From the IMG/VR virus record IMGVR_UViG_3300025322_000015, positions 1-64,000 of that record: a stretch of 64,000 bases of DNA; one strand, written 5' to 3'. Below are positions 6,557 through 33,457 of this stretch, piece after piece. This DNA is from a virus. Within the stretch, counting starts at the first letter, position 1; each line of letters starts with the position of its first letter. The position numbers and the translations under genes are program-made. The notes under the pieces are model-generated. The model worked only from the letters and a program-made list of their open reading frames with translations. It did not search any database and was not told where the DNA came from.

Positions 6557-6927
6557 CAGGTAGGATCCGCTATCTGAAAGCTTTGTAGTTCCCAAGTTGC
6601 TATCGCCGGATCTTTGCCAAGTGCGCGGACCTGGTACCACACACCTCGGAAGCGAACTTGATCATCTTTACGAGGGTCGATAGAAAGGCTACCGGCGATG
6701 ATCAGAAGCTTTACGTCTGACTCGGGAATGCCCGCAGTAGCTTTCTGAAAAACAGAGAAGGTGTCGACGAAACCTTCTAGATTGTAGTTGGTGTAAGTTC
6801 TGCTCGGATCCCCGTTTGCGTCAACTGTGCTGCTGAGCGTCGCTCTGCGCAGAATCCCTTTTAGCAACCTTCCTTGGAAGCCTTTGTGGATCGCGTTCCT
6901 TAACTGGGTTTCCAGAAACGACGCCAT
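6556..6927 (-). CDS. Head closure / head-tail joining protein
   Basis: 123 aa; DPRKDDQVRFRGVWYQVRALGKDPAIATWELQ beta-barrel motif of gpFII/gp16-like proteins; position in neck region. Confidence 0.75.
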   Translation of the reverse strand: MASFLETQLRNAIHKGFQGRLLKGILRRATLSSTVDANGDPSRTYTNYNLEGFVDTFSVFQKATAGIPESDVKLLIIAGSLSIDPRKDDQVRFRGVWYQVRALGKDPAIATWELQSFQIADPT

Positions 6928-7342: not shown

Positions 7343-8350
7343 TTAGATCACCACGTCGTTGAAGAACACGCCGAGGTCGGCCGACACGCGCTGAAGATCC
7401 CACGCCATACGACCCTGGAAGAAGTCGCTGTGCGCGCGATCGTCACGACCGGACTCGATGACGCCGCCCATCGCATTCGTGGCGCCGGGGATCAGGCCGG
7501 TCCAGGCGAAGTTGGCAATTGCCGTCGGAGAGTCGAGACCGGGATTCGGCTCGATGTACGCCAGCAGCATCGCCTTCTTGTCGACGATGAAGTTGAAGCT
7601 GTCCGTGGCACCTTCGGCCGCCGCATTGTAGACAGAACGAGCAGTCACGACCTGGTCGACGTCGAACAGGGCTGCCAGGATCATATCGTCGGCCACGCCG
7701 TGCTGGACGTATTTGATGCGGTCAGCGATATCGGGATGGGAGCGCAGAGTCCGTTTCACGTCGGCACCAAGAACGAGCTTATTCGGCATGTAGCCGGTAA
7801 GTTCGTTCATCGCATCCTTCGCCGCATCGATAACGCCGATCGGATCGGAGGAGGCATCGCTGAATTGCAGGAACTGGAGGTTGCCGGGAGTTGAGGCGAC
7901 ACCTTCATAGTTCGTGGTCCAGACGCCGGTGCGGAAGAAGTTCTGCGCCCAGACACGGTCCTGTTTGATGAGATGCTTCTGCGTGAGCAGGATCGTGGCG
8001 TTCTCGTCGAGCCGGATCGGATCGTCGGCGTTCGCGCGCTGACGGTCATCGACAGTATGCTCCAGCGCGAACTCGACAGCGCTGTAGGTGCCCTCACCGA
8101 TCTTGTAGCCGACCTGAACGGGACGACCACCGAGCGGGCGGGGAGCAGCCTCATCGCGCCAGAAGTAACCGCGATCGTAAACGACGAACTTGTCGGTCTG
8201 TTTGAGGACCGGAATCACCGAGGCGCAGCTCTGTGCGATGAACCGCGCCGAATCCTGAACGAACATCACGGAGAAGTCGGTCAGGTAGCGGTCGATGTGC
8301 AACGTCCCTTCGATGTTCGTTGCCGAAGGGGAATTCTTTTGAATACGCAT
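7343..8350 (-). CDS. Major capsid protein (HK97 fold, lambda gpE-like family)
   Basis: 335 aa, GC-rich host-like codons; HIDRYLTDFSV, YDRGYFWRDEA, DVDQVVTARSVYN; follows the scaffold and decoration genes. Confidence 0.9.
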   Translation of the reverse strand: MRIQKNSPSATNIEGTLHIDRYLTDFSVMFVQDSARFIAQSCASVIPVLKQTDKFVVYDRGYFWRDEAAPRPLGGRPVQVGYKIGEGTYSAVEFALEHTVDDRQRANADDPIRLDENATILLTQKHLIKQDRVWAQNFFRTGVWTTNYEGVASTPGNLQFLQFSDASSDPIGVIDAAKDAMNELTGYMPNKLVLGADVKRTLRSHPDIADRIKYVQHGVADDMILAALFDVDQVVTARSVYNAAAEGATDSFNFIVDKKAMLLAYIEPNPGLDSPTAIANFAWTGLIPGATNAMGGVIESGRDDRAHSDFFQGRMAWDLQRVSADLGVFFNDVVI

Positions 8351-8398: not shown

Positions 8399-8782
8399 TT
8401 ACGCCACAGTGCCCGGGATCAGCGTGACCGGAATCACGTCGCCGGAAACACCAGCCACGAGTGCGACGCCGATCGAGTAGAGCGCCGAAGTCGCTGCGAC
8501 ACCAAGGCCGGACGCATTGGACATCACACGCTGACCGGCCTGAACCGTGCCACCGAGCTTCACCTTGGCGATGCCGAGCATCTGAATGGTGGCCGGCTCG
8601 TCAGCAACAGCCTCCTCGTACAGGGTGCCGATCGCCAACGCACCGTTGCCGGCGAGAACCAACTTCTGCTGCTGGTTGAGTGCGACGATTTTATTCAGAT
8701 CACCGGTGAAATCTTCACCAGCCGTCTCCGAATACATGAATTCCGCAGGCACACGAAAGATTGCCATTTCCGTTTTCTCCAA
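8399..8782 (-). CDS. Capsid decoration/cement protein (DUF2190-like)
   Basis: 127 aa; GIAKVKLGGTVQAGQRVMSNASGLGVAA..GVALVAGVSGDVIPV pattern; immediately upstream of MCP. Confidence 0.8.
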   Translation of the reverse strand: MEKTEMAIFRVPAEFMYSETAGEDFTGDLNKIVALNQQQKLVLAGNGALAIGTLYEEAVADEPATIQMLGIAKVKLGGTVQAGQRVMSNASGLGVAATSALYSIGVALVAGVSGDVIPVTLIPGTVA

Positions 8783-8837: not shown

Positions 8838-10088
8838 CTAGTTGGCGTCGGACTCACGATACGCAGCGAACTCGTCCGGGTATTCCGTGCGCGCCTTGGT
8901 CATCGCAGCGGCGTGGCCGAGACTGTCACGCTTTTGGATTTCACGCACCTTGCCCATGAACGGATGCGAAGCACCCTTCCGCAGGCCCGACTGCCGGCCG
9001 ATGTCTTCGCCGCCACCATCACCGAGACGAGTGAACGCCGATTTGATGGCACCCTCGCCGGCCGCCAGCATCTTCACGATGGAAGCCTGAACATCTTCGG
9101 AAAGACTCTCGATCCCCTTCAGGACGTGGGCCTTCTCGATATCGGTGCCGGGCAGGTTCGTGTAAGCAGCCTTGGCCACCTTCTCGTATTCGCCCATCTG
9201 GCGAGCAGCCTTCTCGGTAGCGGCCGACTTCACCGCCGACTCGATTTCCTCGGACTGCGCCTTCAGGATAGCGAACATCTCGTCGCCGACCGAAGACTTC
9301 CGAATCGTCTGGCCCTTGACCGTCAGGGTCTCGTCGTCGGCAGCCTTGCCCATCTTCTTCTTGCGATCGCCGGCCGACAAACCGCGGAAAGCCTTCTGCT
9401 CCTCGCGGCCCAGGCTGGACATGTAAGCCTTTTCCTGGTCGTTCATCGAGGCCTTAGCGGTCTCCACCTCGAGCGAAGTGGTGAGCTCCTCGACCTTAGC
9501 AGTCAGGGATTCGACCTGAGTCGTCAGTTCAGCAGCCACACCAGCATCCGTAGAAGCCTTCGTGAGATCCTCGAGCTTCTTCTCCAGATCAGAAATCTGA
9601 ACCTTCATCTGCTCGGTGGTCAACACCTTCGCCATATCCTCAATCTCCTCAGTTGATTTACCCAAAGCTGACATCATTACCATGTCGGCTTCGCTCCACA
9701 TCCGTCTGATAACGGACATGAAATCTTCTACCGTGTTCCTAGCCATGGTAAGTTTAGTTTCCGGAGGAGTAACAGGATCTCCGGCAATCGATCTGAGCGA
9801 CGTTTCCATTGCATTGATAATGGGCCCAACGTGCTCAAGCGCTTCGTAATACTGCTCGCATCGCATCGTCTCGGAAAGAACAGTCGAGAACGGAACGGCG
9901 CCATCCATCGGATCAATATATCGTTTTGTAAGGGCTCCAATATCGAGTTTCGTCATATCAACATCTCCATCCGCACTTTTGGCAATGCGCATGAGTGCGC
10001 CCTGTTGGGCCGGAGTATCAACAGCACTGATTTCGCCGATCTCAAAAGCGCGCATAATCTTCTGTTCTTTGTTCTTACCCTTACTCAT
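8838..10088 (-). CDS. Prohead protease-associated scaffolding protein
   Basis: N-terminal IGEISAVDTPAQQGA (protease-like segment) followed by long coiled coil; C-terminal AAAMTKARTEYPDEFAAY. Confidence 0.75.
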   Translation of the reverse strand: MSKGKNKEQKIMRAFEIGEISAVDTPAQQGALMRIAKSADGDVDMTKLDIGALTKRYIDPMDGAVPFSTVLSETMRCEQYYEALEHVGPIINAMETSLRSIAGDPVTPPETKLTMARNTVEDFMSVIRRMWSEADMVMMSALGKSTEEIEDMAKVLTTEQMKVQISDLEKKLEDLTKASTDAGVAAELTTQVESLTAKVEELTTSLEVETAKASMNDQEKAYMSSLGREEQKAFRGLSAGDRKKKMGKAADDETLTVKGQTIRKSSVGDEMFAILKAQSEEIESAVKSAATEKAARQMGEYEKVAKAAYTNLPGTDIEKAHVLKGIESLSEDVQASIVKMLAAGEGAIKSAFTRLGDGGGEDIGRQSGLRKGASHPFMGKVREIQKRDSLGHAAAMTKARTEYPDEFAAYRESDAN

Positions 10089-11257
10089 GCGCCTACCTCT
10101 TCATCAAGTAACCGGCGACCGCCAATACTAAACCCGGTGTACGTCCCGTTCTTAAACTTCTCGAGGATGTCAGGCCGGTCTACTTTCATGCCGATCATCA
10201 ATCCTGTAGTTGGGGAAGCAATACCCATCGCCTTCGCAATATCTGTTGTCAAGGGAAATGCGAAGATTACTTCTCCGGCACGTTCTACTGACTCCGCATC
10301 ATTTCCCCGATAGCGATGCATGTGTCCACCGATGCGGGATTTCTGCATGTAGTTGGCCGAAGCGACGAGCATCGAATCCTCAGGAATGTGATCGCCCTGG
10401 ACGTCAAAATACTCCTTGCCGCGAATCTTCGAGATGATTGCCCAACCGAAGACGATACCGAGTTCTTCGTTGACTTCCTCGACCTTGGCAACGTGGAACA
10501 CCTTCTCGGTGATCGAATCGTGCCAATCATCTTTTACAACGTTGAAGCGCTCAGGACCGAAGAGCAGCACACCTGTAAAGGGATGCACCTTGGTAAGATC
10601 AACGTCACCGGCATCCCAGGATATCGTCACGTGCGGGGTGTATTGGAAGTGATCCCAGGTCGCACCAACGGAGCGCAGATAATCCCAGCGCTCGTTCAAC
10701 TCATTAGATTTGAATTGCAGAACGACAGCACCACCATCACCCAACGCGACAACTTCCCGCCCAGCTGTATCCTCAGCAGCAAGAGTAGAAGTCACGGAAG
10801 CGGGCCACTCAAGCGGAGCGTGCGAGTACGCGATGGTTACGTGAAGGTCTCCAGGCTGTAGCACTGTCTTGAATCCCTGTGCCTTCGCCCACTTAATAAA
10901 CTCATCGGAATTGATTAAACGACGACTGACATACATCGAACGTTCAGCTGAACGTTTCTCAATCCCAGGACCATGAGCTTCGCATACAGCACCAAGCCGT
11001 ACAGCAGCATTATGTATTGATTGGATGTCTGTAAGATCGTTACGGGAATTCCGCGCACCAATCTTGGCAATCCACCGGTCATCGTCACCCCTCTCCCAGT
11101 TTTCCTTGACCGCCGCCCATGCCGATTGCTTGGCAACGGGTTCGGATGCTCCGGATTCTATTTGAGAGTTTGCGACTTCTCTGAATACAGTCTGTGCTGC
11201 CTCGGGGAGAGCTGATCTCACCGACTCAGGAAGGTCAGCGTTCGATTGCCATGGCAT
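10085..11257 (-). CDS. ChaB - Acb1-like 2H phosphodiesterase - XkdF-like prohead protease fusion; start trimmed to MPWQSNADLP at 11257
   Basis: ChaB: LPESVRSALPEAAQTVFREVAN..AWAAVKENW. 2H: LHVTIAYS and YTPHVTISW. XkdF-like: IVFGWA..DVQGDHI..GGHMH..VIFAFP..KNGTYTGFSIGG. Confidence 0.8.
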   Translation of the reverse strand: MPWQSNADLPESVRSALPEAAQTVFREVANSQIESGASEPVAKQSAWAAVKENWERGDDDRWIAKIGARNSRNDLTDIQSIHNAAVRLGAVCEAHGPGIEKRSAERSMYVSRRLINSDEFIKWAKAQGFKTVLQPGDLHVTIAYSHAPLEWPASVTSTLAAEDTAGREVVALGDGGAVVLQFKSNELNERWDYLRSVGATWDHFQYTPHVTISWDAGDVDLTKVHPFTGVLLFGPERFNVVKDDWHDSITEKVFHVAKVEEVNEELGIVFGWAIISKIRGKEYFDVQGDHIPEDSMLVASANYMQKSRIGGHMHRYRGNDAESVERAGEVIFAFPLTTDIAKAMGIASPTTGLMIGMKVDRPDILEKFKNGTYTGFSIGGRRLLDEEVGA

Positions 11258-11427
11258 ATGTGCTGGGGAGCTACGGAGAGCGCTGGCAGCCACCGTAGTG
11301 CGGTAGGGGCCGGTCCTCGTAGGACGACAAAAGTAGCATACCCCTTTACGTGACGCAATATAGGAAAATTCGACGAAACATGCGAATGGCTCCGAAATCC
11401 ATGGAGCCATTCATTCTCGATAGATTG

Positions 11428-11589
11428 TTATGAAGTCTTTAGCATTGCACGGCTCTCGGCGAGCAGCGCCTCTATAGTTTTCCTCCGAGCTTCGTCGTCG
11501 TAACGAATGATATCAAACTCCCGTTCGCTGTCATCCCAGACGAATCTACTCACTACTTTCTTCTGTGCAACCTTCTTTGTTCTTGCCAT
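11428..11589 (-). CDS. Small ORF (53 aa) directly downstream of MuF-ART; candidate immunity protein (not in ORF track)
   Basis: AGGTGG Shine-Dalgarno-like site; MARTKKVAQKKVVSRFVWDDSEREFDIIRYDDEARRKTIEALLAESRAMLKTS*. Confidence 0.5.
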   Translation of the reverse strand: MARTKKVAQKKVVSRFVWDDSEREFDIIRYDDEARRKTIEALLAESRAMLKTS

Positions 11590-11598: not shown

Positions 11599-13662
11599 CT
11601 ATGGTAGTAGTTCGAGAACTACTGCATTCGCTTTAATTTCTCGAACGATAAACTTGGAACCTCTATCAAGAAGTATTTCGAATTCGGTTTTGTTGGATGT
11701 CAACTTTTCCATGGAGATCGCTCTAGAGCCCTTAGGAAGAAGAATCTCGACAACAAAACCGCTGCCGTGTATCCAATTCGCCGCAAAGCTCCTGCTCATG
11801 CTAGTGCTTAACACAGCTTGATCTATAAGCACTGTTTGCCCAATTTGCAAGCTCGCAAAGGTGCGTTTCCACCTACTGCCCTTCATGCCGCGGTAGACGA
11901 TGACGTCCTCAGCGAGAACGGCTTTTGCAAAAGCACTGTCAAGCTCAGCTATCATCCTGTCGGCACTACGCATCGTATCAGCATAACCAAGGAATGGAGC
12001 GTCACCGTACCGCAACCGCTTCACTACCTGTTTATTGATTATTTCATAACCGTAACCAGAAGTGTAGTGCTTTAGCGTATCCATTTCGGCTAGTGTTAAT
12101 TTTGCCGTGAAACCTTCTTTATACAAATCGTCTAAAAGTTCACGCATCTCCATTGTTTTCAAATTACTGATAAAATCTTCTGGATTTTTCCCAGTACCTT
12201 TCGGAGGTTTCGTAACTGTTGTAGGCACACCATATTCATACTTAGCAGCCTGTACAACATCTTCACCGGCGATAGTCTTAGTTGATGTCGACGTGATGCC
12301 ACGGTTCTTTGCAGCTTGTCGAACAACCTCAGTATACTTCTTTGCCGCTTTCAATTCAGCAAGTTCTAAAGCCTCCGCCGTCTTCAAGGCCGCGCTGAGT
12401 ATCTTGTCTGCTTCAGCAATTTGAGCAGCTTCTACATTCTTTAGAACATCAGCCACCTGCGAGTTCAGCTGATTGAATGCTCCTCGTGCTGCATCATTAT
12501 CAGCAAAGGTGACAAAGCCATCAGCGTAGTCAGTATCGTACGAGGTTTTAAGACTCGTGTATATTGGCGGAGGGGCAGGTTTTGGCGTAACAACAATCGG
12601 GCGTTGTAACGCTGTACTCTGACCCGGTGGAAGTATTTTCGTGAGCGTAGTACAGCGGCATTGAATAGTCTCCGCCGCTGGTGCTGATCTATCTCCAGGA
12701 TACATCAATTTCGCACCAGATACGCTAACGAAATGTTCTTCAGCACCGCGCTCTTGTTTGTTTAGAAAGAAGTGTGTCTGACGCTCACGACCATCTACAT
12801 TCGTACGCCAGGTGCGGCGGATGCGGCCCATCTCCAAATCAACTTTAGTAGCCGTCTGCATCATCGCTTGATGTCGTGCCACATTGGTCGTACTCAGCAT
12901 CTCCGTACGCGCGATAGTTTCCGCGCGCATAGACAACATCCGTTCCTGGTAGCGACCCACCATCCTATCGATTTGAGAAGTAGATAATTGAACACCTCGA
13001 TCGATTGCACGAGATACAGAGGAATCAAATCGACGATCCCGAAGAGTACGATCCAGCGCTTCCGAACTTCCACTCTGTAGAAGGCTACGATAGTTGGAGA
13101 CTGCTCCCATCTGGCGTTGTGTCAAGCCAATCTGATCACGAAACAACCTTGAGGCCTCGATGGGACTCATACCTTCTTTCAACGCACGTGCGAGGACAGT
13201 ACGAATTGCTTTCCTTTGCGCATCTACTATCTCACGAATGAATTCAAGAAGTGATTGACGCATCAAGCGTGCAGCATCAGCACTACCAGGATCGAACGAT
13301 AGATTGACTGTCGGGCTAACTTCTATCTTCTTGACTTGCGTGATATCCAATTCTTTAATCAGCCAGCGCGTCTCGAAGTTTCCTGCGTTCTCGAAGACGG
13401 TAGGAAGAACCTCTGAAAAGTCTTCTACAAGATCGTCGGTGACGGATAAGCACTGCACAAGCCTGTTGGCGGCGTACATGTCACGGAACTTGCCGACCAC
13501 ATCATCTGACTTACAGCCCTCCAGAAATGTATTGAAGGCTGCGCGAATCAGAGTCTCTTGACCGGTCTCGAATGTAACGATACGTCGCACATCGGGAGGT
13601 AAGGCCTTACCTAGAACGGCGTGCTTGCACTGCACGATTCGAGACTGCGGAATAAACTGCAT
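11599..13662 (-). CDS. Head morphogenesis protein (MuF / SPP1 gp7-like) with C-terminal VIP2-like ADP-ribosyltransferase
   Basis: MuF: RAETIARTEML, RRTW..DGRERQTH, YPGD..ETIQCRCT. ART R-S-E motifs: IVYRG, LSTS, TEFEILLDRGSKF. Confidence 0.9.
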   Translation of the reverse strand: MQFIPQSRIVQCKHAVLGKALPPDVRRIVTFETGQETLIRAAFNTFLEGCKSDDVVGKFRDMYAANRLVQCLSVTDDLVEDFSEVLPTVFENAGNFETRWLIKELDITQVKKIEVSPTVNLSFDPGSADAARLMRQSLLEFIREIVDAQRKAIRTVLARALKEGMSPIEASRLFRDQIGLTQRQMGAVSNYRSLLQSGSSEALDRTLRDRRFDSSVSRAIDRGVQLSTSQIDRMVGRYQERMLSMRAETIARTEMLSTTNVARHQAMMQTATKVDLEMGRIRRTWRTNVDGRERQTHFFLNKQERGAEEHFVSVSGAKLMYPGDRSAPAAETIQCRCTTLTKILPPGQSTALQRPIVVTPKPAPPPIYTSLKTSYDTDYADGFVTFADNDAARGAFNQLNSQVADVLKNVEAAQIAEADKILSAALKTAEALELAELKAAKKYTEVVRQAAKNRGITSTSTKTIAGEDVVQAAKYEYGVPTTVTKPPKGTGKNPEDFISNLKTMEMRELLDDLYKEGFTAKLTLAEMDTLKHYTSGYGYEIINKQVVKRLRYGDAPFLGYADTMRSADRMIAELDSAFAKAVLAEDVIVYRGMKGSRWKRTFASLQIGQTVLIDQAVLSTSMSRSFAANWIHGSGFVVEILLPKGSRAISMEKLTSNKTEFEILLDRGSKFIVREIKANAVVLELLP

Positions 13663-14217
13663 CTAACCCTCCAACCACTCAACAGTAGGGGAACCTAAAA
13701 GAGTGGCTGTCCAACCACTCATGCTCCGTACTCGATCCCTGAACTCTGATTCTTTAGCTGCGATCCAATGCTTCTGATATTTGGAAGCCTCTGTCCACGG
13801 CAGACCCCGCTTGTGAGCGTGGTAATGGGGCATCGCCGGGTCGATAGGCACGCCGCACAAAACGACCGCTGTCGCGCCAGCTCGCAAGGCTGCGAACGCT
13901 GCCAGCATGCCGGACGATCCCCCAACCGCGTTCACGGTCCGCGTTCCCTTTGGAGCCGCCCGCGTTGGGCCGCCCTTCCCTGCCCAATATGTGCCTGCTG
14001 GATCTAATCCACGCGCCGCTCGCTCCCTAGACCACTTGCCCAACTGATCCGAATGATATGAAACCCAGTGATCTATTTTTCCTGGGTAGTCGATACCGAT
14101 GTCGTTGACGACAACCACCATGTCAGGCATACACAGATCCTGGGCTGACGCAAGGTCAGCCCAGACGCACTTAGCACCTCCGAGAACGAAGGCTATAACC
14201 CTAGCTGAGGGAGCCAC
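13663..14217 (-). CDS. Putative Maf/MptE/CstII-fold (sialyltransferase-like) transferase
   Basis: VLGGAKCV, VVVVND, DHWVSYH, GGSSGMLAAFAAL..AVVLCGVPID pattern; similarity judged by eye. Confidence 0.5.
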   Translation of the reverse strand: MAPSARVIAFVLGGAKCVWADLASAQDLCMPDMVVVVNDIGIDYPGKIDHWVSYHSDQLGKWSRERAARGLDPAGTYWAGKGGPTRAAPKGTRTVNAVGGSSGMLAAFAALRAGATAVVLCGVPIDPAMPHYHAHKRGLPWTEASKYQKHWIAAKESEFRDRVRSMSGWTATLLGSPTVEWLEG

Positions 14218-14983
14218 CGCGATTCGCCCACGAGTTTAGTACACGATGGTAGTCATCGTAGAATTCAGTATTCTCACGGGCGAGGATATCAGGACTGCCG
14301 AGCGTCCAGTGAATCAAGTTCAATGGCTCAGAGCCGATTGCAAGCTCGCTCACGGTAACAAGGTGGTTCCACGTCGGCGGCAGCTCGCCGATCTCGTCAT
14401 CCTGTAGCCAGCAGAAGCGATGTAAGTCCCGGCCAGGAAGAGTGTTGACCATTTCAACGGTCAGCTTCTCGTTCGCCGGATGCTCGCAGTTGAACAGCAT
14501 CACCGAAGACCAGTTCTTCCTTGGGTAGACCGTCTGCACCTCACCGCTCTTCTTCTTGGTCTCCACAGGAACGTGATTATGCTTTACGCACATCACAGCT
14601 TTGGAGGAATCGGCGAGTGCGAAGACGTCGGCCGGATCGGCCAGGAACATCGTATCGCAGTCAGCAAACAATGCCCAACCTTCCTTTTGGATGACCGGAA
14701 CAAGGAAGCGGGAGTTGGCGAACTCCGAAGACATTGGAGCCTCGCTGATGCAGTCCCACAACTTGCCCTCGCTGCTCACAGACGTCTTGCGTGTATACAA
14801 CCCCTGCCGGCGAAGCGTGTCGAGAACCAGGCCTCGGATCTCGATACTCTCACGCATGTGGCCGACCGCCGACTTCACGCACACGACGAAGTTATTAGTC
14901 TCACGAGAGTCGAACCCAATAAAAATGCTACGCGTAGGTGACAACGTAATCTCCTGACTTTTCCCAAACAAGTTTATAACCAA
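14201..14983 (-). CDS. GT-A glycosyltransferase (GT8-like)
   Basis: IFIGFDSRE, FANSRFLVP, ALFADCD (DxD), RKNWSSVMLFN, WNHLV, IHWTLGSP. Confidence 0.85.
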   Translation of the reverse strand: MVINLFGKSQEITLSPTRSIFIGFDSRETNNFVVCVKSAVGHMRESIEIRGLVLDTLRRQGLYTRKTSVSSEGKLWDCISEAPMSSEFANSRFLVPVIQKEGWALFADCDTMFLADPADVFALADSSKAVMCVKHNHVPVETKKKSGEVQTVYPRKNWSSVMLFNCEHPANEKLTVEMVNTLPGRDLHRFCWLQDDEIGELPPTWNHLVTVSELAIGSEPLNLIHWTLGSPDILARENTEFYDDYHRVLNSWANRGGSLS

Positions 14984-15599
14984 GTGCGATCAGATACTCC
15001 AGGGCTGCCAAACGTCTGATGTTGAATCGTTCGGCATTCCCAGGTTTCTGCTCGAGTATAATGACAGGCTTGTCTTCTTGTATTGTTCTTTTTGCTCCTT
15101 GTACTACAAATAATTCCCAGCCCTCTACATCGATCTTGAGGAGATCGATCTTGCGACCTAGAGGGAAGTTGTCCAACGCGTACGTGCGCGTAAAACTAGC
15201 GCCTTGCGCAGGCTTATCGACAACATGGGCGTTGCCGCTGTTGCCTTGAACATACGCGATACTGATATCGTCGTTCGTATGCGACAGTGCCATATGGTAG
15301 CATATCGCATTATCGATATCATTGCAGTTGCGATTCCAACACTCGTAAAGCGCGAGGTGAGGCTCGAATGCTACGACTTCCTCGAACATCGTAGAGAGCA
15401 CATGCGACCACAGTCCAACATGGGCCCCGACGTCGACCGCGAGGCCGCGTGCAGACTCGGGAACGAACCCCACAGCAGCCTGAAGCTTCTTCAGCTGATA
15501 CGTCCCTCTCTCATTGAGCATCGGGCTGCTCTCGAGGTGATGCTGGAAGTGCGTATCGTCGTCGGGGAACCACATCCCCTTAATTTCTTTCATCTCCAA
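14928..15599 (-). CDS. FkbM-family methyltransferase
   Basis: AVDVGAHVGLWS, VVAFEP, IDLLKIDVEGWE, KPVIILEQK. Confidence 0.9.
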   Translation of the reverse strand: MEMKEIKGMWFPDDDTHFQHHLESSPMLNERGTYQLKKLQAAVGFVPESARGLAVDVGAHVGLWSHVLSTMFEEVVAFEPHLALYECWNRNCNDIDNAICYHMALSHTNDDISIAYVQGNSGNAHVVDKPAQGASFTRTYALDNFPLGRKIDLLKIDVEGWELFVVQGAKRTIQEDKPVIILEQKPGNAERFNIRRLAALEYLIALGYKLVWEKSGDYVVTYA

Positions 15600-16441
15600 T
15601 AAGGCTCCCGTCTCTCATTCCTGACTTCTACTTTTGACGTCCTGCCGATCTTCTTCCGAGCGCCCTTCGCATGATCAAGCCGAGCGGCAAGCTCACACCG
15701 AACGAATGGATGATGGTAGCGACTGGCATCACCCGATAGGCTGTGGGGATCAGTCATCCAACCCTCAGCGATTCCCCTACGAACGATCTGCTGAAAGATG
15801 TAAGAATCGTGAGTCTCATCCTCCTCAAAAATCTTTCCAGATTCATATATCGTCCGCAACTCCGACATGAATCGCACATGCTCAGGGCGCCAACACTTGA
15901 ACATCATAAAGCCGCATTCAGGATAACCACGATTCCTATGCAACCATGCGAGATAGGTGTCAGATCGAAATAGATTGTAGAGCCATTCACAATCGACGTT
16001 GTCATGCGCCAAGGTATCGGCATCGATCATGATCAGCAGATCTTCTCCTACGTTTGAAGCTACGTCTGTCAAGGCTGCGACCTTGTGTCCGAACTTCAAA
16101 CAATCTCGGCGGAAGTCGTACTCTCGCTTTTCTCTATTCCTCCTTCTGTCACGACCAACAGCATCAGGGACAGCAGAATACTTCTCTTTGAACTTTGTAT
16201 ACCAGTCCGGAATCTGCCGATATACAACATTGTCGATGACGGGAAGCGTGTTCCGAGGTATGTCCTCGCTGTAGAAGTAGAGTTTAATCTCCTTCGCCCA
16301 ATAACGCTGGAAGGTCTTCAACATGCGATGGCCGTATTCGTCGTATCCTCTCTTACTCGTCGTCGTAACAAGTCGGATCATCGTTAACCTCGTAGTCCGC
16401 GCGGATGATAAAGTTCTTGCGATTGTACTTTTTAAGTACAT
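15590..16441 (-). CDS. GT-A nucleotide-diphospho-sugar transferase
   Basis: LVTTTS..GYDEYG, KFGHKV, MIDAD (DxD), YPECGF, HDSYIF, DHAKGARK. Confidence 0.75.
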   Translation of the reverse strand: MYLKSTIARTLSSARTTRLTMIRLVTTTSKRGYDEYGHRMLKTFQRYWAKEIKLYFYSEDIPRNTLPVIDNVVYRQIPDWYTKFKEKYSAVPDAVGRDRRRNREKREYDFRRDCLKFGHKVAALTDVASNVGEDLLIMIDADTLAHDNVDCEWLYNLFRSDTYLAWLHRNRGYPECGFMMFKCWRPEHVRFMSELRTIYESGKIFEEDETHDSYIFQQIVRRGIAEGWMTDPHSLSGDASRYHHPFVRCELAARLDHAKGARKKIGRTSKVEVRNERREPYWR

Positions 16442-16892
16442 CGTTCCACCACCGAGGTGTACGGACCGTCAGGTGTACGTTGACACCGTCATTGAACGAC
16501 TTCCTCGCCGGCCGGCAGCAGATCGCGAAATACGCAAACTTAGTCGCGTATTGGCAAACGTCTGCTAAAACTTCTTCGACGTTGTCGTGCGCAATGTGTT
16601 CCATCACATCTGTGCAGATAGCTCCGTCGAATCTACCTGTAGGTTTATTCTTGAGTTGTATGACACCGACGTCGTAGCATACAGGAAGGATACCGCCCCA
16701 GGCTTCATGTACACGAGTCGCAAGATACTGATAGCCTTTCCCGCTTCCGTAATCAAGAAGGGTCTTGGCTCCGGTATCGCGCACCAGGTCAGTAATATTC
16801 TGAACTGAGACTGGTTTTAGAGCACCACTGAACCACTTCGGATGCTCTTGGTGAAGTTCCCTATAACGCTTTTCGTATTTGAACGCACCCAT
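16353..16892 (-). CDS. Class I SAM-dependent methyltransferase (paralog of 34715-35245)
   Basis: LLDYGSGKG, YDVG, FDGAICTDVMEHI, VHLTVRTPRWW. Confidence 0.9.
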   Translation of the reverse strand: MGAFKYEKRYRELHQEHPKWFSGALKPVSVQNITDLVRDTGAKTLLDYGSGKGYQYLATRVHEAWGGILPVCYDVGVIQLKNKPTGRFDGAICTDVMEHIAHDNVEEVLADVCQYATKFAYFAICCRPARKSFNDGVNVHLTVRTPRWWNDVLKKYNRKNFIIRADYEVNDDPTCYDDE

Positions 16893-17757
16893 TCAACGTA
16901 CTCCAGAATTTCCCGTCGTTGATTTCGTCAGTACTCCATTGGCAATACGCCAAATCGTTCAGTATAGCGTTAACTTCTTCTGCACTTGCCTCCTTTGGTG
17001 AAATTACGTCTTCCAGTGTCCGCGATGATATTCCAGCAGTGACAGCATCGCCGAGACAGATTGCAGGAATGCCGGCAGTTATCGCCTCCATGACAGCATT
17101 GCTGCCATAGGTAACCATCGCATGCGCGCCACGAAGATCATCGAGAATATTGTATTCCGTCGAGAAATCACTGCCAGGAAGTTTCTCAGCGTGGTGCCAG
17201 GATTTCTTCGGACGGTACAAAACCTTACGGTCGGTAATCTTCGCAAGCCGATCAACAACATCTTGCCAATACGGCGTGGGATGTTCGAGGTGGTGAAACA
17301 TATGATACTTCAAGCTGGATCCCGCGATCAGCACGTGACCCTTCTTTGTCTTCGGACGCCAGCCTTTGAAGCACCAACCTTCCGCTTCCCTACGATCAGA
17401 AGGTGAGTTCAACTTGCCGAGGTACTTCGTGGGTTGGTGGCCTCCATAAGAAATCTTCCACCAATTCTTCTCACGGTTGTAGGGCTTGTCGAAGTAGATG
17501 TACGGAACGCCCGCCTTGTCGCAGTTGCCGGAAAGGAACACCTGCTTCACGCCGATGAACCCGACGACATCGAACTGCGTAACATCTTCGATATAGCCAA
17601 GACAATGCACCTCCCAGCCGTGCATCTCCGCGCCGCGTTTGAAAGCCTGGCCTAAGGCGTATTCTAATTCTTTCCAACCACCACGCTCGGGTCGCTTCTC
17701 GGGAACCTGGAAACCTATCTTCATATCGTCAATACCCCCTTGATGTAATCCCAACAC
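16861..17757 (-). CDS. GT-B-like glycosyltransferase (KpsS/KpsC-like); true start probably MKIGFQV
   Basis: YFDKPY, VLYRPKK, HAMVTYGSNAVMEAITAGIP, LNDLAYCQWSTDEINDG. Confidence 0.7.
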   Translation of the reverse strand: MLGLHQGGIDDMKIGFQVPEKRPERGGWKELEYALGQAFKRGAEMHGWEVHCLGYIEDVTQFDVVGFIGVKQVFLSGNCDKAGVPYIYFDKPYNREKNWWKISYGGHQPTKYLGKLNSPSDRREAEGWCFKGWRPKTKKGHVLIAGSSLKYHMFHHLEHPTPYWQDVVDRLAKITDRKVLYRPKKSWHHAEKLPGSDFSTEYNILDDLRGAHAMVTYGSNAVMEAITAGIPAICLGDAVTAGISSRTLEDVISPKEASAEEVNAILNDLAYCQWSTDEINDGKFWSTLNGCVQIRKAL

Positions 17758-18554
17758 TCACCGCTGCGCATCTCGTTAGGCGTCCATTGCGCGTAAGCCG
17801 TGTCATACAATAGTTGCATTTTATCTTCAGTAGTGGGATGTGTTGGGTTAAGTAAAGTATCCTCACTGAAATCAGGATTGGAGAGTAAGGAACCAACGCC
17901 CTTCTTCGCATAAAAAGGGATACCGGCGACAAGACAATCAACCGCTACATTGCTGTGATGACTGACAACGAAGTAGGCCTCGCGCAATGCAGCGTCAATA
18001 GTCCCAATCTTCGTTGTTCTGAGATTCTGCTTATTCGGTTTTTGTCTGACGTAGACTGATCCTTGCGGAAATATCTTCTCAACGGCGTCCTTCGTTTGTT
18101 GTTCCCATTGTCCATCTTTGTATCCATGGGTCCAAGCTGCTTTTCCCGACATCCCAACAATCATGATGACATTGCTGGTATGATCCCACTCGTCCCTGAC
18201 GTTCACCTTCAGGCGATTAAATCGATCAGGGGGACAATTCCTACGCATGCGTACAGCTGTATCCCAATCGTCGATGCCTAGCCGATAATGACCCTCTGTA
18301 CCTCGATCCCAGTAACCAAGGTCGAGAAAGACAAAATGCTTTCCCGCTGCCTTGTATTTGGAAAATAGGTGAGTGGTCAGCTCATTGATCCAACCATACG
18401 CGACAGCAACGTCGGCAATTACATTGCCATCAAACTTTTCTGGAGTAAGACAATTAATCCCGTGGCGACGAAAACCTGTGCGGAATGCATTGCCTAGAAG
18501 ATTTGGCTTGTCCCGGCCCCAGCCATTGTTTATACCGTATACAGCTACCTTCAC
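17721..18554 (-). CDS. GT-B-like glycosyltransferase (KpsS/KpsC-like)
   Basis: FLDLGYW, VYVRQKP, VVSHHSNVAVDCLVAGIP, LYDTAYAQWTPNEMRSG. Confidence 0.7.
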   Translation of the reverse strand: MKVAVYGINNGWGRDKPNLLGNAFRTGFRRHGINCLTPEKFDGNVIADVAVAYGWINELTTHLFSKYKAAGKHFVFLDLGYWDRGTEGHYRLGIDDWDTAVRMRRNCPPDRFNRLKVNVRDEWDHTSNVIMIVGMSGKAAWTHGYKDGQWEQQTKDAVEKIFPQGSVYVRQKPNKQNLRTTKIGTIDAALREAYFVVSHHSNVAVDCLVAGIPFYAKKGVGSLLSNPDFSEDTLLNPTHPTTEDKMQLLYDTAYAQWTPNEMRSGECWDYIKGVLTI

Positions 18555-19369
18555 AAAACTCTCCGTTTGTGGATTTCCAAAAGCCGTGCCATCGGCTCAC
18601 CTGTTAAAACCTCATCCAGGGTCCATTGCGCCCAGGCGAGGTTACTCAACATCGCCACACGGTCACCCATCAGAGTGTGCGCGCTAACATCCATCGAGAT
18701 GTTTTTGATCCCGAAGCACGCCGCTGGTCCAGCAATCCATCTATCAAATTCGTAGAAGACCGGGATACCAGAAACCAGAGCCTTCGTCGCTGCACTACTT
18801 CCCCAAGTCACCGAACACCAAGCATGCTGGAAATCTTCAGAGAGGGGTGTTGTCTCCTTACTTGTTCCTGGGTGTCTACGAACATGCACCATAGAAGATT
18901 TGGTTATCCTCCTGATGCGCGGGACAACACTTCCTTCCCAGTCACGTGGCATCGCGACACCAGGCAACCCAACACCGCGCTGCGGTAGCACGAGGATATG
19001 AGTCCCTGATTCCTTCCAGGGTTGCAGCTCGATATCCAGCTTCTCGTATCTGGAGTAATCAGGACCTGGCCAGACACCTGCGCCGTTATGACGATTTAAC
19101 GCCATCGCGAAAGACTTCTTAGACTTCCGCATGTTGAGATAAGAGTTCTCAACAACAATAACAGCGGCGCCGTGATCCTCGAACAGCGTCGCTTGTTTGT
19201 CTCCTGTACCATATCTGTTCCAGATCAATACGACGTCATCTGGAGTAGGTCGGCGACCTTTACTGAATGGTTGGATCTCAACTTGATAGCCGAGCTTTTG
19301 CATTCCCGCTATAAACGCGTCGTGGCGGTATACAGGATTGGGGCGGATTAGGCATAGAGCTGTTTTCAT
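18551..19369 (-). CDS. GT-B-like glycosyltransferase (KpsS/KpsC-like)
   Basis: VVENSY, VHVRRHP, SVTWGSSAATKALVSGIP, LSNLAWAQWTLDEVLTG. Confidence 0.7.
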   Translation of the reverse strand: MKTALCLIRPNPVYRHDAFIAGMQKLGYQVEIQPFSKGRRPTPDDVVLIWNRYGTGDKQATLFEDHGAAVIVVENSYLNMRKSKKSFAMALNRHNGAGVWPGPDYSRYEKLDIELQPWKESGTHILVLPQRGVGLPGVAMPRDWEGSVVPRIRRITKSSMVHVRRHPGTSKETTPLSEDFQHAWCSVTWGSSAATKALVSGIPVFYEFDRWIAGPAACFGIKNISMDVSAHTLMGDRVAMLSNLAWAQWTLDEVLTGEPMARLLEIHKRRVL

Positions 19370-19387: not shown

Positions 19388-19942
19388 TTACAGGGATTCG
19401 CTGTATCCAAAATCATCAGCCGTCACCGACTCATTATCGGTACCGGAAGAAATAACCCCGAAGGAAGTTGACGTCCCTGCAAGGTAGTCACGAATCAACT
19501 CCATGATGTTGAACGGGAAGCGAGAAGGCTCACCGCCAGCTCCGCGAAAGAACGTAATCGCGGCTGATCCGGCCCGCAGCGATTGGATGCTCTGCTCGGT
19601 ATTCTGAGAAGTTACCGAAGCTGTATCATCGACCAAGGCCGCGGCTAGCTCGATGCACGCGTTGATGATAGCCTGAGGAACTACAGTATCCTCGACACCA
19701 TCGATACCTGTACCCGTACGCGGCCACGCGAGGGGCTGAGCAGCATCAGTCTTCTCGCCTAGCCAGTTCTGCCTATCGAGTGTGCGGGTAGCTGTCACCA
19801 GGAATCTGGCTTTGTCATCGGGATCAGTGAGCGCCCTCCACGAAGCTGCGGTCGCCGATGCGTCCAGGTACTCATCCGCCTGCTCGACCGTAGCGTAGGT
19901 ATCGTAAAACGCCCCACTGCCGATTTGTACGAATTCAGTCAT
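19388..19942 (-). CDS. Head-to-tail adaptor (DnaT-like/gp15-type connector)
   Basis: YATVEQADEYL..LVTATRTLD..WLGEKT..QPLAWPR..VPQAIINACIELA. Confidence 0.85.
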   Translation of the reverse strand: MTEFVQIGSGAFYDTYATVEQADEYLDASATAASWRALTDPDDKARFLVTATRTLDRQNWLGEKTDAAQPLAWPRTGTGIDGVEDTVVPQAIINACIELAAALVDDTASVTSQNTEQSIQSLRAGSAAITFFRGAGGEPSRFPFNIMELIRDYLAGTSTSFGVISSGTDNESVTADDFGYSESL

Positions 19943-21090: not shown

Positions 21091-21335
21091 CGTGCCCTAC
21101 GCGTTCTTTGTCCAATTGGATAAGTAGTAGAAGATTCACCAGTCTCGCTGTTGTAGACAGTGAAGTAAGCTACGTGTCCCCAAGCCATTCGCTGTTGCCA
21201 CACTAGCACTTCTACGTCCTTGCTGCTGTCACTCAGGTGTCGAGTTTGGACAAGAAGATCGCCATACTTGACTTTCGGATGCGGATGCTTGTCACTCGCG
21301 AATCCAGTAACGACCCATTTCCATTTTCCAGCCAT
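21081..21335 (-). CDS. Hypothetical protein
   Basis: 84-aa ORF coupled to both neighbours. Confidence 0.55.
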   Translation of the reverse strand: MAGKWKWVVTGFASDKHPHPKVKYGDLLVQTRHLSDSSKDVEVLVWQQRMAWGHVAYFTVYNSETGESSTTYPIGQRTRRARCH

Positions 21336-22336
21336 CAGAGATCTCGAATGATTGCAGCTTCCAGAACACCCTCGACGTAGTAGACACAGACGACGGCCCC
21401 ATCCGATCGAGCGAACAGTTGAGGATACCCAAAGTCTCGACAGCCAACCAACTTAATGACGTGCGTCCGCCAGGTCTGTCCTTTGGTGTAGTCCGAGACC
21501 GCTACCATCATATTTCCAGTAGACCGATTACCGTACGCAGCAATCAACCTACCCTGATGCGAAAGCAATGCGGGAGGGTTACCGTTATGGTCCCCAGTCA
21601 CAGCTACTATCTCAGTCCGCGTGCGCCACGAGACTCCTTGATTGTCGGAGACGTATGCTGAGATCCAGCTCTGCTTATTCAATCTACGTCGGCAAAGAAC
21701 GATAATCTCGTTATCAAGAGCGGCGGCGGCGGGCATCACCTGCCTACTACCATCTCCATAATCAGGCAACTCCGATATCTCGAAGAACGGCGTGTATTTT
21801 CCACGTTGTGCGACAACTACACGATCGCTACCAAACACACCTTTATGCGCGTGCGAGAGAAAGACGAGATCACCCAGCTGGCAGGTTCGAGTAGTACAGA
21901 TACGCTTTCCGCCCTTGGTCAAATCTAAATCTTCGATAAGGAAAGGACCAGCCCAGTTGTATCCTTTGTCATTCGAGTAGTAGAAAGCTCCCCGAGGATC
22001 ACAGGCCTCGCCACCGTGATCGTAGAATCCACAAAACCGTAGAATTGAACTATCAGGTTCTGCTTCTCCTAAAGATTGATAGACGTGTCTGGGATCCGCA
22101 CCTTCAAAATCAACATCAGGTAAGGTGCTGATCCAACTCTCTCCACCGTCCTTACTGCGAAAGAGAAACTTCTGAAGAATACCAGTAACCTTGTGCATAC
22201 TCTTTATAGTAGTATCACGCATGCCGACAGCAGCACCGAAAAGTAATTCATCTCCCCATTGCCAATGCCCGTGGTTCGCCGGCCAGCCAAAGAACAAGGT
22301 CGACGAATTGGTAATGCGAACAAAATCAACTTTCAT
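21335..22336 (-). CDS. BNR/Asp-box beta-propeller, sialidase-like glycoside hydrolase
   Basis: Asp-boxes RSKDGGESW, YSNDKGYNW, VSDNQGVSW, VSDYTKGQTW; C-terminal DFGYP. Confidence 0.8.
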   Translation of the reverse strand: MKVDFVRITNSSTLFFGWPANHGHWQWGDELLFGAAVGMRDTTIKSMHKVTGILQKFLFRSKDGGESWISTLPDVDFEGADPRHVYQSLGEAEPDSSILRFCGFYDHGGEACDPRGAFYYSNDKGYNWAGPFLIEDLDLTKGGKRICTTRTCQLGDLVFLSHAHKGVFGSDRVVVAQRGKYTPFFEISELPDYGDGSRQVMPAAAALDNEIIVLCRRRLNKQSWISAYVSDNQGVSWRTRTEIVAVTGDHNGNPPALLSHQGRLIAAYGNRSTGNMMVAVSDYTKGQTWRTHVIKLVGCRDFGYPQLFARSDGAVVCVYYVEGVLEAAIIRDL

Positions 22337-22367: not shown

Positions 22368-22706
22368 TTACTGGTCGATACCAGCAGCCCATAACGGTTT
22401 ACATCCAGTTATATGTATGCCTGCATCATCCACACCGTCCGACCAGGGATTGATGCACAGCAAATAAATGCCAACCCGAAGACCTTGATCCCAATTAGAA
22501 TCGAAGTTGTTATCTTCCGCCGTCTCTTCGAGAAGAATATCACGCTCAATAATATCATCAGATCGTGCGAGGATATAACCTGTACCGTCCTCCGAAAGCG
22601 CAACAATGCACTGATCTTTTGCCAAGGTCAGCGATCCGTGTATTGACGGCAGGTCGTCTTCTACAGAAGCTGATACACCGTTTAGACAACTACAATGCTG
22701 GGTCAT
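22368..22706 (-). CDS. Hypothetical protein
   Basis: 112-aa acidic ORF coupled to the upstream gene. Confidence 0.55.
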   Translation of the reverse strand: MTQHCSCLNGVSASVEDDLPSIHGSLTLAKDQCIVALSEDGTGYILARSDDIIERDILLEETAEDNNFDSNWDQGLRVGIYLLCINPWSDGVDDAGIHITGCKPLWAAGIDQ

Positions 22707-23269
22707 TACACATCCTCCTCAAGTGAGCAATACAGCCAGTCATGTACTCGGATCCGTCCATAATGACTGCGAGCCGCTGCGTATAAAATTATCGTTCCAA
22801 CGGTAAATCCCATTCCGAAGGGAAGATGTATACCCATGAAGCAAATTGCGAGTAAGATGAAGTTAACAAAGGTGATTACCGGAAATCGTACGTCTCCACG
22901 AATCTGTGTTGTTGATACGTTTGGAGTACGCGGAAATACAACTACTTCCCAGCGAGGATCTCGCCGAACCGAGTCTGCCCAATCATCGCCGACGAATAAC
23001 ACATCAAACTTGTGCCGCTCCCAAAGTGCAGAGATATCCGTATCGTGTACCTTCACAATTACATCTACACAGACAACTTCAGCGATACGTGCCGCACGAT
23101 CGTGAACAGAGGATGACGTCTGTCTACCTTTTCGAGCAACAACCAACGCATCATCAATAATACCAACGGTGAGATGCTTGCTTCGACTACTACACCTTTG
23201 TAGTAATTCAAGATGTCCGGTATGTAGCATACCAAACGTCCCCATCGTAAATCCACGTTCATATGTCAT
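22706..23269 (-). CDS. Cytidylyltransferase (TagD/RfaE-like HxGH family) with hydrophobic C-terminal extension
   Basis: GTFGMLHTGH, LFVGDDW, RTPNVSTTQI; then an approximately 40-aa hydrophobic segment. Confidence 0.85.
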   Translation of the reverse strand: MTYERGFTMGTFGMLHTGHLELLQRCSSRSKHLTVGIIDDALVVARKGRQTSSSVHDRAARIAEVVCVDVIVKVHDTDISALWERHKFDVLFVGDDWADSVRRDPRWEVVVFPRTPNVSTTQIRGDVRFPVITFVNFILLAICFMGIHLPFGMGFTVGTIILYAAARSHYGRIRVHDWLYCSLEEDV

Positions 23270-25895: not shown

Positions 25896-26447
25896 TTAGG
25901 TGTCCAAAATCAGCGGAGAGGAGTAATGGTCACAACCAACGAACGCCACCTGCGCGCCTCCAGATCTGTTCGTCACGCGCATCAGATAGTTAATGCCCGT
26001 CTGCAGAATCCATTCCGCTTCAAATGATGATGCTCCGCCACTCGCTTGATTCCTAGATCCCGCCGGAAGCATCTGAGAGATAAGACGAGTACCCAAATCA
26101 GAAATACTGGGGTTAGAAACCATCGTACCTCCCCATACACGAGAGCTTGTACGCTTATGGTTGTATACAGCTTCTACGTCACCTCCAGTTGCAGCAACAC
26201 CTTCGAAGAATCCCAATTCAGCAGTACCGCCGCAACCGACCTCCATAATCATATGAATGGGATCTCCCGCAGGAGCGTTAATCATCATGTCAAGGTTAGC
26301 GTTGTTCGCTAACGCAGCATCAATCAGAGAGCAATGATACATCACTCCTTCGTTAATCCGACTTATTGGATCATCGGCAACTTTCCGCCCTGACGCTGTT
26401 AATGGATATACACCTCCGAGTCGTAACAGTCGTGACCATGAACTCAT
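25896..26447 (-). CDS. Putative structural beta-rich protein (tandem paralog 1)
   Basis: Aligns by eye along its full length with 26474-27031 (SW.KLL.L.G...LTA..R....D....R.N.GVM.H; EWIL....YL.R.TNR). Confidence 0.65.
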   Translation of the reverse strand: MSSWSRLLRLGGVYPLTASGRKVADDPISRINEGVMYHCSLIDAALANNANLDMMINAPAGDPIHMIMEVGCGGTAELGFFEGVAATGGDVEAVYNHKRTSSRVWGGTMVSNPSISDLGTRLISQMLPAGSRNQASGGASSFEAEWILQTGINYLMRVTNRSGGAQVAFVGCDHYSSPLILDT

Positions 26448-33430: not shown

Positions 33431-33457
33431 TGCTTACTTCCTAGTCCCGATTAAAGT

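Follow-up and report, generated by a model that had tools for sequence, protein, structure and literature searches.

Positions 1 to 64,000 of the IMG/VR record IMGVR_UViG_3300025322_000015 (hereafter, the window) contain eight adjacent genes for glycosyltransferases and methyltransferases, g1 to g8, embedded among the head genes of an uncultured phage. This cassette is a real, conserved and selected glycan-building unit, and belongs to a module that is widespread among phages and whose probable product is a short glycan bearing methyl groups. The position of the genes makes virion proteins the best-supported acceptor of the glycan, a reading that we hold tentatively and that is weighed below against modification of the host envelope, of phage DNA and of other cytoplasmic targets. 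A first-pass annotation of the window, made from the nucleotide sequence without database searches, had proposed the same general function, and its claims are taken up where the relevant evidence is presented.

Organization of the cassette

The eight open reading frames (ORFs) occupy positions 13663-19369 of the minus strand with no real intergenic space. Upstream of g1, at a distance of 18 bp, lies the gene for the Ad1 head-tail adaptor (19388-19942, minus strand; phrog_477, E 5.5e-32; Pfam DnaT_2), and downstream the stop codon of g8 abuts the start codon of a gene for a MuF head-morphogenesis protein fused to an ADP-ribosyltransferase (11599-13662, minus strand; Phage_Mu_F and ADPrib_exo_Tox; phrog_3517, E 6.9e-72). 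The first-pass description of eight co-oriented genes running from adaptor to MuF within the late head operon is therefore accurate. It had also called the genes overlapping; they do abut one another, but some of the apparent overlaps result only from choosing the longest ORF in each case. Homologues and a 100.9-kb relative that is 99% complete (locus L101, genome G029) indicate that g5 starts at M21 (16381), and the same comparisons support the GTG start of g8. A scan of the region from 5 to 24.5 kb revealed no terminator-like or promoter-like site that stands out inside the cassette. Given the gapless run from Ad1 through g8 to MuF, and no notable internal promoter or terminator, the eight genes therefore belong, together with Ad1 and MuF, to a single transcription unit.

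The cassette consists of six glycosyltransferase-like (GT-like) genes and two methyltransferase genes, and a second pairing of the two kinds of gene occurs elsewhere in the window. A recount for the entire window gave seven GT-like genes and seven methyltransferases, the same numbers as had been estimated earlier. Flippase, polymerase and exporter families were all absent from Pfam scans of the approximately 68 larger ORFs of the window, as the first-pass annotation had also found, and no transmembrane-like segment is present in any of the eight cassette proteins. The cassette gave zero blastn matches against 50,697 phage records, sequence profiles of its families (A1, A2, A3, A4 and A7) detected either nothing in the PDB or marginal GT1/GT8 motif matches only, and an NCBIfam scan added only FkbM.

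KpsC-like glycosyltransferases with a rewired active site

The first three genes of the cassette, g1 (18551-19369), g2 (17721-18554) and g3 (16861-17757, with a likely start at 17730), all on the minus strand, encode paralogous, compact KpsC-like glycosyltransferases of the GT-B class. A fourth paralogue, p4 (5720-6640, minus strand), lies between the capsid and tail genes, next to a partner gene for a class I methyltransferase (5094-5723, minus strand) with weak Methyltransf_23 and MTS matches and a resemblance to another methyltransferase of the window (35247-35888). Pairwise identity among g1, g2 and g3 is only 20-25%, with a BLASTP E value of 9e-10 for g1 against g2. The p4 and g3 proteins are closer (36% identical, E 4e-52), and p4 is 88% conserved in another viral contig (L075). 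A four-way alignment contains both motifs that had been noted at the outset, V(T/S)xxSxxxxxAxxxGIP and LxxxA(Y/W)xQW(S/T)xxE, and bears out the original description of three tandem GT-B paralogues. A profile built from the four paralogues detects 4,603 proteins, each standing for one cluster at 50% identity, at E <=0.001, mostly of about 280 amino acids.

The same annotation had likened these proteins to the KpsS and KpsC transferases, and searches at the level of the fold agree. An AlphaFold model of g3, built with 64 homologues, has a pLDDT of 95.5, and the top 14 Foldseek matches to this model in the PDB are KrkA, WbbB and KpsC only (E about 1e-7). In VIA comparisons the best matches are KpsC (6mgb, Z 13.0 over 250 amino acids with a root mean square deviation of 5.2; 6mgd, Z 12.5) and WbbB (5fa0, Z 10.9), and generic GT-B enzymes score no higher than 9.9. 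Profile comparison points in the same direction. When KpsS-like and true KpsC genes were drawn from rhizobial genomes, with the KpsC set anchored to the PDB KpsC structure at E 7e-79, the phage GT-B family (A2) aligned by hhalign with four rhizobial KpsC domains at 93.8% probability (E 1.8e-7, 178 columns) and with the KpsS-like alignment (A5) at 89% (E 2e-6, 72 columns); the KpsS-like profile itself found no PDB chain at E 0.001. Three motifs line up between the phage family and KpsC: (D/E)xG(Y/F)xR, located in the N-terminal domain; (K/R)x(H/K)P; and S/T...G(I/V)P, a segment for nucleotide binding.

[quoted passage not shown] In the characterized enzymes the adduct-forming Asp of a QxxxD motif, as taken from PDB titles, is D160 in KpsC, D232 in WbbB and D193 in KrkA. 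Among 64 sequences of the phage family this column contains Tyr in 36, Ala in 8, Gly in 6, Phe in 5, Glu in 3 and Cys in 2, and Asp in none; in the window it is Gly in g1, Ala in g2, Tyr in g3 and Glu in p4. The Gln column of the same motif is likewise altered (Ser 38, Met 8, Ala 7, Gln 5). The HP motif (KxHPD) of the beta-Kdo transferases binds the CMP phosphate, and here its His column is Lys in 57 of the 64 sequences, His in 6 and Arg in 1, for a consensus of RxKP in which the Pro is present in 55/64 and the preceding Arg is invariant. Only g1 among the four window paralogues has the HP form (RRHPGT). The family has invariant residues of its own (R122, R182, G229, P231 and E278, with Q273 nearly invariant, in g3 numbering).

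The window proteins also differ from the beta-Kdo transferases in being shorter (270-300 amino acids) and in falling below threshold for the Capsule_synth family, since none of the four matched PF05159 at E values up to 0.1. Against the Pfam family DUF6716 (PF20471, cut-off 27 bits), p4 scores 27.4 bits and g3 25.4 bits, in matches that span no more than some 35-45 residues where the model has 342 positions, and g1 and g2 have no match. With the fold and profile shared but the Asp of QxxxD and the His of the HP motif lost, these enzymes are therefore best described as homologues of beta-Kdo transferases with a rewired active site, and so a different mechanism or donor is to be expected. The modelled GT-B fold points to a donor of the CMP or CDP type, which falls short of an assertion of Kdo. 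The suggestion that the glycan contains an ulosonic acid stays plausible, and is weakened by the missing Asp nucleophile and by the Lys that mostly replaces the His of the HP motif. Whatever its donor, the family is of enzymological interest as a KpsC scaffold without the catalytic Asp.

A comparison of the g3 model with BFVD also uncovered several proteins with a KpsC-like fold in Tetraselmis virus 1, a giant algal virus (TM 0.61-0.67), two of which are annotated as capsule polysaccharide biosynthesis proteins.

The remaining cassette enzymes

The assignments for the five other genes vary in directness. Most direct is g6 (14928-15599, minus strand), the FkbM methyltransferase, which scores above the curated cut-offs of both PF05050 (61.4 against 22.7 bits) and TIGR01444 (84.7 against 37.7 bits) and matches phrog_8156 at E 4.8e-26. 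The class I S-adenosylmethionine-dependent methyltransferase call for g4 (16353-16892, minus strand) is upheld by phrog_24759 (E 5e-25), with a Methyltransf_23 match that lies below the Pfam cut-off (E 1.1e-4).

The g5 product (15590-16441, minus strand) had been called a GT-A enzyme. It has no family match, and the call is sustained by its predicted fold. The AlphaFold model (pLDDT 85) retrieves alpha-1,3-galactosyltransferase and GTA/GTB (both at E about 1e-7), GlyE and glycogenin in Foldseek searches, and its VIA matches are effectively tied, running from PBCV-1 A64R (Z 13.9) through BoGT6a (13.7), WbbM and GlyE (13.3) down to 13.1, with glycogenin in the range. A D140-A-D142 motif, in which both Asp residues are invariant across 15 homologues, fits a retaining GT6/GT8-like enzyme. 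The second GT-A protein, g7 (14201-14983, minus strand; phrog_28018, E 1.3e-45), had been described as GT8-like. It resembles GT8 through a conserved DCD motif and weak profile matches to WbbM (E 0.061) and GlyE (E 0.075) in the PDB, and scores 14.1 bits (E 0.035) against the Pfam GT8 family (PF01501), under the cut-off of 24.3 bits, so that resemblance can be suggested where family membership cannot.

The last gene, g8 (13663-14217, minus strand), encodes a small protein of about 184 amino acids with at least 124 homologues of about 180 amino acids. It has no direct Pfam or PDB match, and so its membership in the Maf/CstII group, as first proposed, depends on two successive profile comparisons, with links that fall below threshold. 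In the first step, the g8 family aligns by hhalign with a phage family whose members stand first in related cassettes (94.4%, E 8.7e-8, 150 columns). This cassette-first family corresponds to phrog_4603, annotated "alpha-2,3-sialyltransferase" (E 5e-37). In the second step, four members of that family score 27-31 bits against PF01973 (cut-off 34.6; E 2e-7 to 6e-6) and reach CstII at E 0.04. An atlas lead also pointed from g8 to MptE-like proteins (0.88). Set beside the Maf (PF01973) and CstII (GT42) proteins, g8 and the cassette-first proteins have in common an N-terminal GGxxS(L) Rossmann motif and a G(N/S)SG...GA...L.G.DM segment with a His after it, and g8 differs from Maf and CstII in its small size. 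Characterized Maf/CstII members use CMP-activated nonulosonic acids, and Maf enzymes glycosylate protein (flagellin) in the cytoplasm; g8 is a candidate CMP-ulosonic-acid-type or initiating transferase. With this result, all of the enzyme assignments of the first-pass annotation are supported, two of them only indirectly.

Conservation and distribution

The cassette is maintained as a unit. In the relative L101/G029 the whole run from Ad1 through g1...g8 to MuF is collinear, with 63-83% amino-acid identity (83% for g1 and 70% for g2). Against this genome the nonsynonymous divergence (dN) of the cassette genes is 0.10-0.26 with synonymous divergence (dS) saturated, values similar to those of the neighbouring head genes, and all eight genes are under purifying selection.

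A motif scan of IMG/VR yielded 135 relatives, of which 80 were kept and reduced to 50 non-redundant locus groups. The signature motif of the GT-B family is mainly found in viral contigs, which is a further difference from the beta-Kdo transferases: against these 135 occurrences stand only 4 in about 185,000 bacterial and archaeal genomes, each a lone gene. Parts of the cassette recur together in many of the viral contigs. Of the 50 locus groups, 49 contain the GT-B family (124 copies), 31 the g5 family, 23 the g7 family and 23 small methyltransferases. Natural gene fusions support a functional link among these parts. One joins a GT-B to a methyltransferase that is a g4 homologue (L002:12502-13995, plus strand, 497 amino acids) and another joins a GT8-like protein to a GT-B (L044:6472-8214, plus strand, 580 amino acids).

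A quick maximum-likelihood search for the GT-B tree places g1 in a first-position clade with SH-aLRT support of 99, made up of sequences from eight phages (the window phage, L101, L002, L003, L004, L006, L029 and the Caulobacter phage CcrSC), and g2 in a second-position clade with support of 98; g3 and p4 are sister paralogues (99). From this branching pattern we propose that g1, g2 and g3 are anciently diverged, position-specific paralogues that would have distinct roles.

Cultured phages also carry the module. The GT-B family is present in 13 records of phiCbK-like Caulobacter phages, and in CcrSC (L082, MH588547.2 118481-122967) the genes gp169-174, mostly annotated as hypothetical, encode a Maf-like protein, three GT-Bs, a methyltransferase and one more conserved protein, in a position between the tail-fibre genes, which they follow directly, and the lysozyme gene. 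Other Caulobacter carriers in culture are CcrBL9, CcrColossus and CcrPW, and Pelagibacter phage Mosig is a carrier as well. The first-pass annotation had stated that no characterized equivalent of this size was known in a phage of Gram-negative bacteria. The module does appear to have no characterized equivalent in the searchable literature, but the uniqueness that this statement implied does not hold for a module so widespread and with cultured carriers.

What the glycan may be attached to

The observations can be assembled into a simple model for the cassette. The products of the eight genes would make up a soluble assembly line for a glycan in the cytoplasm, and transcription would be late in infection, along with that of the head genes. 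The small Maf/CstII-like transferase g8, the three position-specific KpsC-like GT-Bs (g1, g2 and g3) and the two retaining GT-As (g5 and g7) would attach sugars in succession, drawing on nucleotide sugars made by the host, and g4 and g6 would O-methylate the product. A search for the CMP-Kdo synthetase family (PF02348) found no member in the 72.7-kb record of which the window is part or in four other cassette-bearing genomes, and so the donors, including any CMP-Kdo, should be made by the host. UDP-sugars are likely donors, with a CMP-activated acidic sugar (Kdo, for example) or a CDP-activated donor as possibilities. The acceptor would be one or more of the virion proteins synthesized at the same time (capsid, cement, neck or tail), with the result that the particle acquires a glycan coat. 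Candidate acceptors in the window include the major capsid protein (7343-8350, minus strand; phrog_1005, E 6.4e-78) and a cement or decoration protein (8399-8782, minus strand; Phage_cement_2).

The argument for virion proteins as acceptors is one of gene position. In addition to the cassette itself, between adaptor and MuF, the smaller module of p4 and its methyltransferase sits between the capsid and tail genes of the same phage. Related cassettes occupy the head-neck region of two other siphovirus lineages as well: in L055, L063 and L003 a methyltransferase and a GT-B follow the large terminase, portal and major capsid genes and precede those for Ad1 and the tape measure protein, and in L007, L004 and L006 a set consisting of a Maf-like gene, GT-Bs, g5 and FkbM lies between a Neck1/connector gene and tail-side genes. 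Together with the location after the tail genes in CcrSC, these arrangements favour a virion target, as do the solubility of the enzymes and the failure to find export genes or known routes to hydroxylated DNA bases.

Known examples of virion glycosylation offer a precedent of the same general kind. According to passages in PMC11600133 and PMC12619734, which cite Freeman et al. 2023, the Cluster O mycobacteriophages have three tandem glycosyltransferases after an O-methyltransferase and modify their capsid and tail-tube proteins, in the cytoplasm. The mycobacteriophage systems (Corndog type, and Che8) resemble the present one in combining tandem glycosyltransferases with an O-methyltransferase and in having no export machinery. 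They differ in that the present cassette is larger and the cultured carriers of its module grow on Alphaproteobacteria. In chlorovirus PBCV-1, virus-encoded cytoplasmic glycosyltransferases and methyltransferases produce methylated glycans on the capsid protein (PMC9614988). The top VIA match of g5 is a domain of the PBCV-1 enzyme A64R, tied with other retaining GT-As (13.2-13.7), but PBCV-1 is a giant virus of a eukaryote, without KpsC-like or Maf-like components.

Several observations weigh against virion proteins as the target. The capsid, cement, tail and neighbouring proteins have no Ser/Thr-rich tails, low-complexity ends or acceptor motif, and the original proposal of a multi-sugar, O-methylated glycan on the virion stands as the best reading by virtue of gene position only. 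Lipid-linked glycans, and not proteins, are the substrates of all characterized structural relatives of g1-g3 (KpsC, KpsS, WbbB and KrkA). In T4-like marine phages including Mosig, which supply the largest group of related loci, the neighbours of the cassette are genes for UvsX, gp32, UvsW, ribonucleotide reductase and RuvC instead of structural genes. The glycosyltransferases of mycobacteriophages belong to families that are not detectably related to those of the cassette, and a tblastn search with g3 of the 50,697 phage records gave no actinophage match. Finally, phage gene clusters for DNA glycans can also adjoin structural genes, and their GT8-like secondary transferases, too, find PBCV-1 A64R as their best match in the PDB (10.1101/2023.12.21.572611).

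The strongest of the alternatives, although an unlikely one, takes its lead from the lipid-linked acceptors of the nearest solved structures. The enzymes would work on the cytoplasmic side of the inner membrane and modify lipid-linked glycans there (lipopolysaccharide core, O-antigen or capsule linker), and host exporters would display the capped or altered product; the outcome could be superinfection exclusion, or a drain on the pools of CMP-Kdo and UDP-sugars. In T4-like cyanophages, clusters of comparably small glycosyltransferases are usually read as cell-surface genes (PMC12801897), and the basic character of several of the GT-B paralogues (pI 8.5-9.5) would suit a peripheral association with the membrane. 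Pfam scans and the check for membrane segments found no transporter or membrane anchor, however, and the distribution of the GT-B signature motif, so strongly weighted to viruses, is unexpected for borrowed host lipopolysaccharide genes. The phage also looks strictly lytic, with a DNA polymerase, clamp loader and RecA-like protein of its own and no integrase in the scans, and at the late time implied by a position in the head operon there would be little value in altering the surface of a cell that is already dying.

Modification of phage DNA is less probable again. Here a methylated oligosaccharide would be built on a modified base and would block restriction and other nucleases. Multi-glycosyltransferase clusters that derive from lipopolysaccharide and teichoic-acid enzymes, and that use host donors, are indeed known to hypermodify phage DNA (Pyle et al., 10.1101/2023.12.21.572611; Lee et al., PMC13326640), and the products include mono- to trisaccharides on 5-hydroxymethylcytosine, with heptose and a Kdo-like acid among the sugars (10.1101/2023.12.21.572611). 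The proximity of such clusters to structural genes and the resemblance of their GT8-like enzymes to A64R, which g5 shares, have been mentioned above, as has the location of the T4-like cassettes next to replication genes. The window phage itself invests heavily in DNA modification, with genes for FolE, QueC, QueD and QueF, and has four further methyltransferases beside ThyX-like and dCTP-deaminase-like genes.

The difficulty for a DNA target lies in the base. The known clusters need a hydroxylated base, supplied either by a ThyA homologue or by a C5-methyltransferase together with a Tet-like dioxygenase (10.1101/2023.12.21.572611; PMC13326640), and these routes were not found. ThyA (PF00303) is absent from the 72.7-kb record (69% complete), from the 99%-complete G029, and from the complete genomes of CcrSC and Mosig; Tet/JBP (PF12851) has no match at or near the cut-off in the same four genomes, the single match in CcrSC scoring 14.5 bits against a cut-off of 34.9; and the C5-methyltransferase family (PF00145) was not found in the window's own 72.7-kb record. 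The base predicted for this phage, dPreQ1, is an amine with no hydroxyl. Moreover, g3 has its best structural matches in KpsC and WbbB, not in DNA transferases like the T4 beta-glucosyltransferase, and the cassette is co-transcribed with head genes, at least 20 kb from the replication module.

Least probable of all is some other cytoplasmic target, whether a host protein such as flagellin or pilin glycosylated against secondary infection, or a methylated oligosaccharide, free or secreted, or else a small-molecule glycoside: g8 and the cassette-first family do fall within the Maf/DUF115 superfamily, the cultured carriers include phiCbK-like Caulobacter phages, which are flagellotropic, and FkbM methyltransferases often act on small molecules, but the repeated placement of the genes among head, neck and tail genes would go unexplained, and so long a series of transferases acting in sequence points to an oligosaccharide carried by a macromolecule.

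The virion reading can be extended to the module as a whole, with rather less confidence than is placed in it for the window phage. It is possible that a Maf-like initiating O-glycosyltransferase and position-specific, Asp-less glycosyltransferases derived from KpsC constitute an ancient and widespread machine that coats virions with a methylated, probably acidic glycan in soil siphoviruses of about 100 kb, Caulobacter jumbo phages and SAR11 pelagimyophages. To our knowledge, mycobacteriophages and giant algal viruses are so far the only viruses shown to have glycosylated virions. If the glycan is indeed on the particle, the phenomenon would also take in large groups of phages from the environment, among them the phages of Caulobacter and those of SAR11, which are the most abundant bacteria of the sea, with consequences for phage adsorption, particle stability, grazing, and recognition by antibodies or lectins. 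If the machine is ancient as well, virion glycosylation would be common in phages of Gram-negative hosts and not a curiosity of actinophages. The module is present in cultured Caulobacter phages, and so the question of the target is directly testable at the bench.

Additional sugar and methyl-transfer genes

A second block of methyltransferase genes (32858-35888, minus strand), two of the FkbM type and two of class I, is paralogous to the methyltransferases of the cassette. Homologues of these four genes sit inside glycosyltransferase clusters of other phages, and the block may serve the same glycan as the cassette. It lies 13 kb from the cassette and adjoins ThyX-like, dCTP-deaminase/dUTPase-like and AAA_28 kinase-like genes.

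At a distance of 3.3 kb upstream of the cassette is a gene for a TagD-like cytidylyltransferase (22706-23269, minus strand; PF01467, E 6e-11; PDB 1coz, E 3.8e-12). This gene has a relative in a cytidylyltransferase-cupin fusion that occurs inside the glycosyltransferase clusters of 18 marine locus groups, and it hints at a CDP-activated donor. The alternative that it encodes an NMN adenylyltransferase was rejected, the best PDB matches being glycerol-3-phosphate cytidylyltransferases. The gene was also considered as a dedicated, donor-activating part of the core cassette, but it is missing from the close relative G029 and is therefore not counted as a core component.

Genomic setting

The window covers the initial 64 kb of a record of 72.7 kb, for which CheckV gives a completeness of 69%. 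A search of sequencing runs located near-identical DNA in soil metagenomes, possibly including the source sample, with no RNA run among those listed, and the source virus is taken to be an uncultured soil phage of about 100 kb. The minus strand carries almost all genes of the window. By Pfam and PHROG scans, the late region is of the siphovirus type and includes, beyond the genes already described, a large terminase candidate (28612-30417), a Mu-type portal gene (27092-28588), a gene for a ChaB-Acb1-protease fusion (10085-11410) and a tape measure gene (680-2989). A further module, for replication and nucleotide metabolism, encodes a family A DNA polymerase, a clamp loader, RecA-like and SbcCD-like proteins, and FolE, QueC, QueD and QueF, along with the products of a ThyX-like and a dCTP-deaminase-like gene.

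Some features of the late region deserve mention in their own right. The C-terminal fusion of the MuF protein is an exoenzyme-type ADP-ribosyltransferase domain (PF03496, E 3.8e-17), and the protein is probably packaged in the capsid and injected as an effector. Of the sequences between 5 and 24.5 kb, the one that best matches a sigma-70-like promoter (11507-11534, minus strand; 10/12, with an extended -10 TG) sits in the 188-bp gap between the MuF gene and that for the ChaB-Acb1-protease fusion. Just downstream of the portal gene are two adjacent paralogues of about 184 amino acids (25896-26447 and 26474-27031, minus strand), which are alike in their C-terminal halves and have no family match; one member of the pair is kept in L101. 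The same late gene run includes a gene (21335-22336, minus strand) for a protein of 333 amino acids whose BNR/sialidase-like repeats are weak (E 7.9e-7 for BNR_2, under the cut-off). This protein has no counterpart in L101, and a connection with an acidic-sugar glycan would be speculation.

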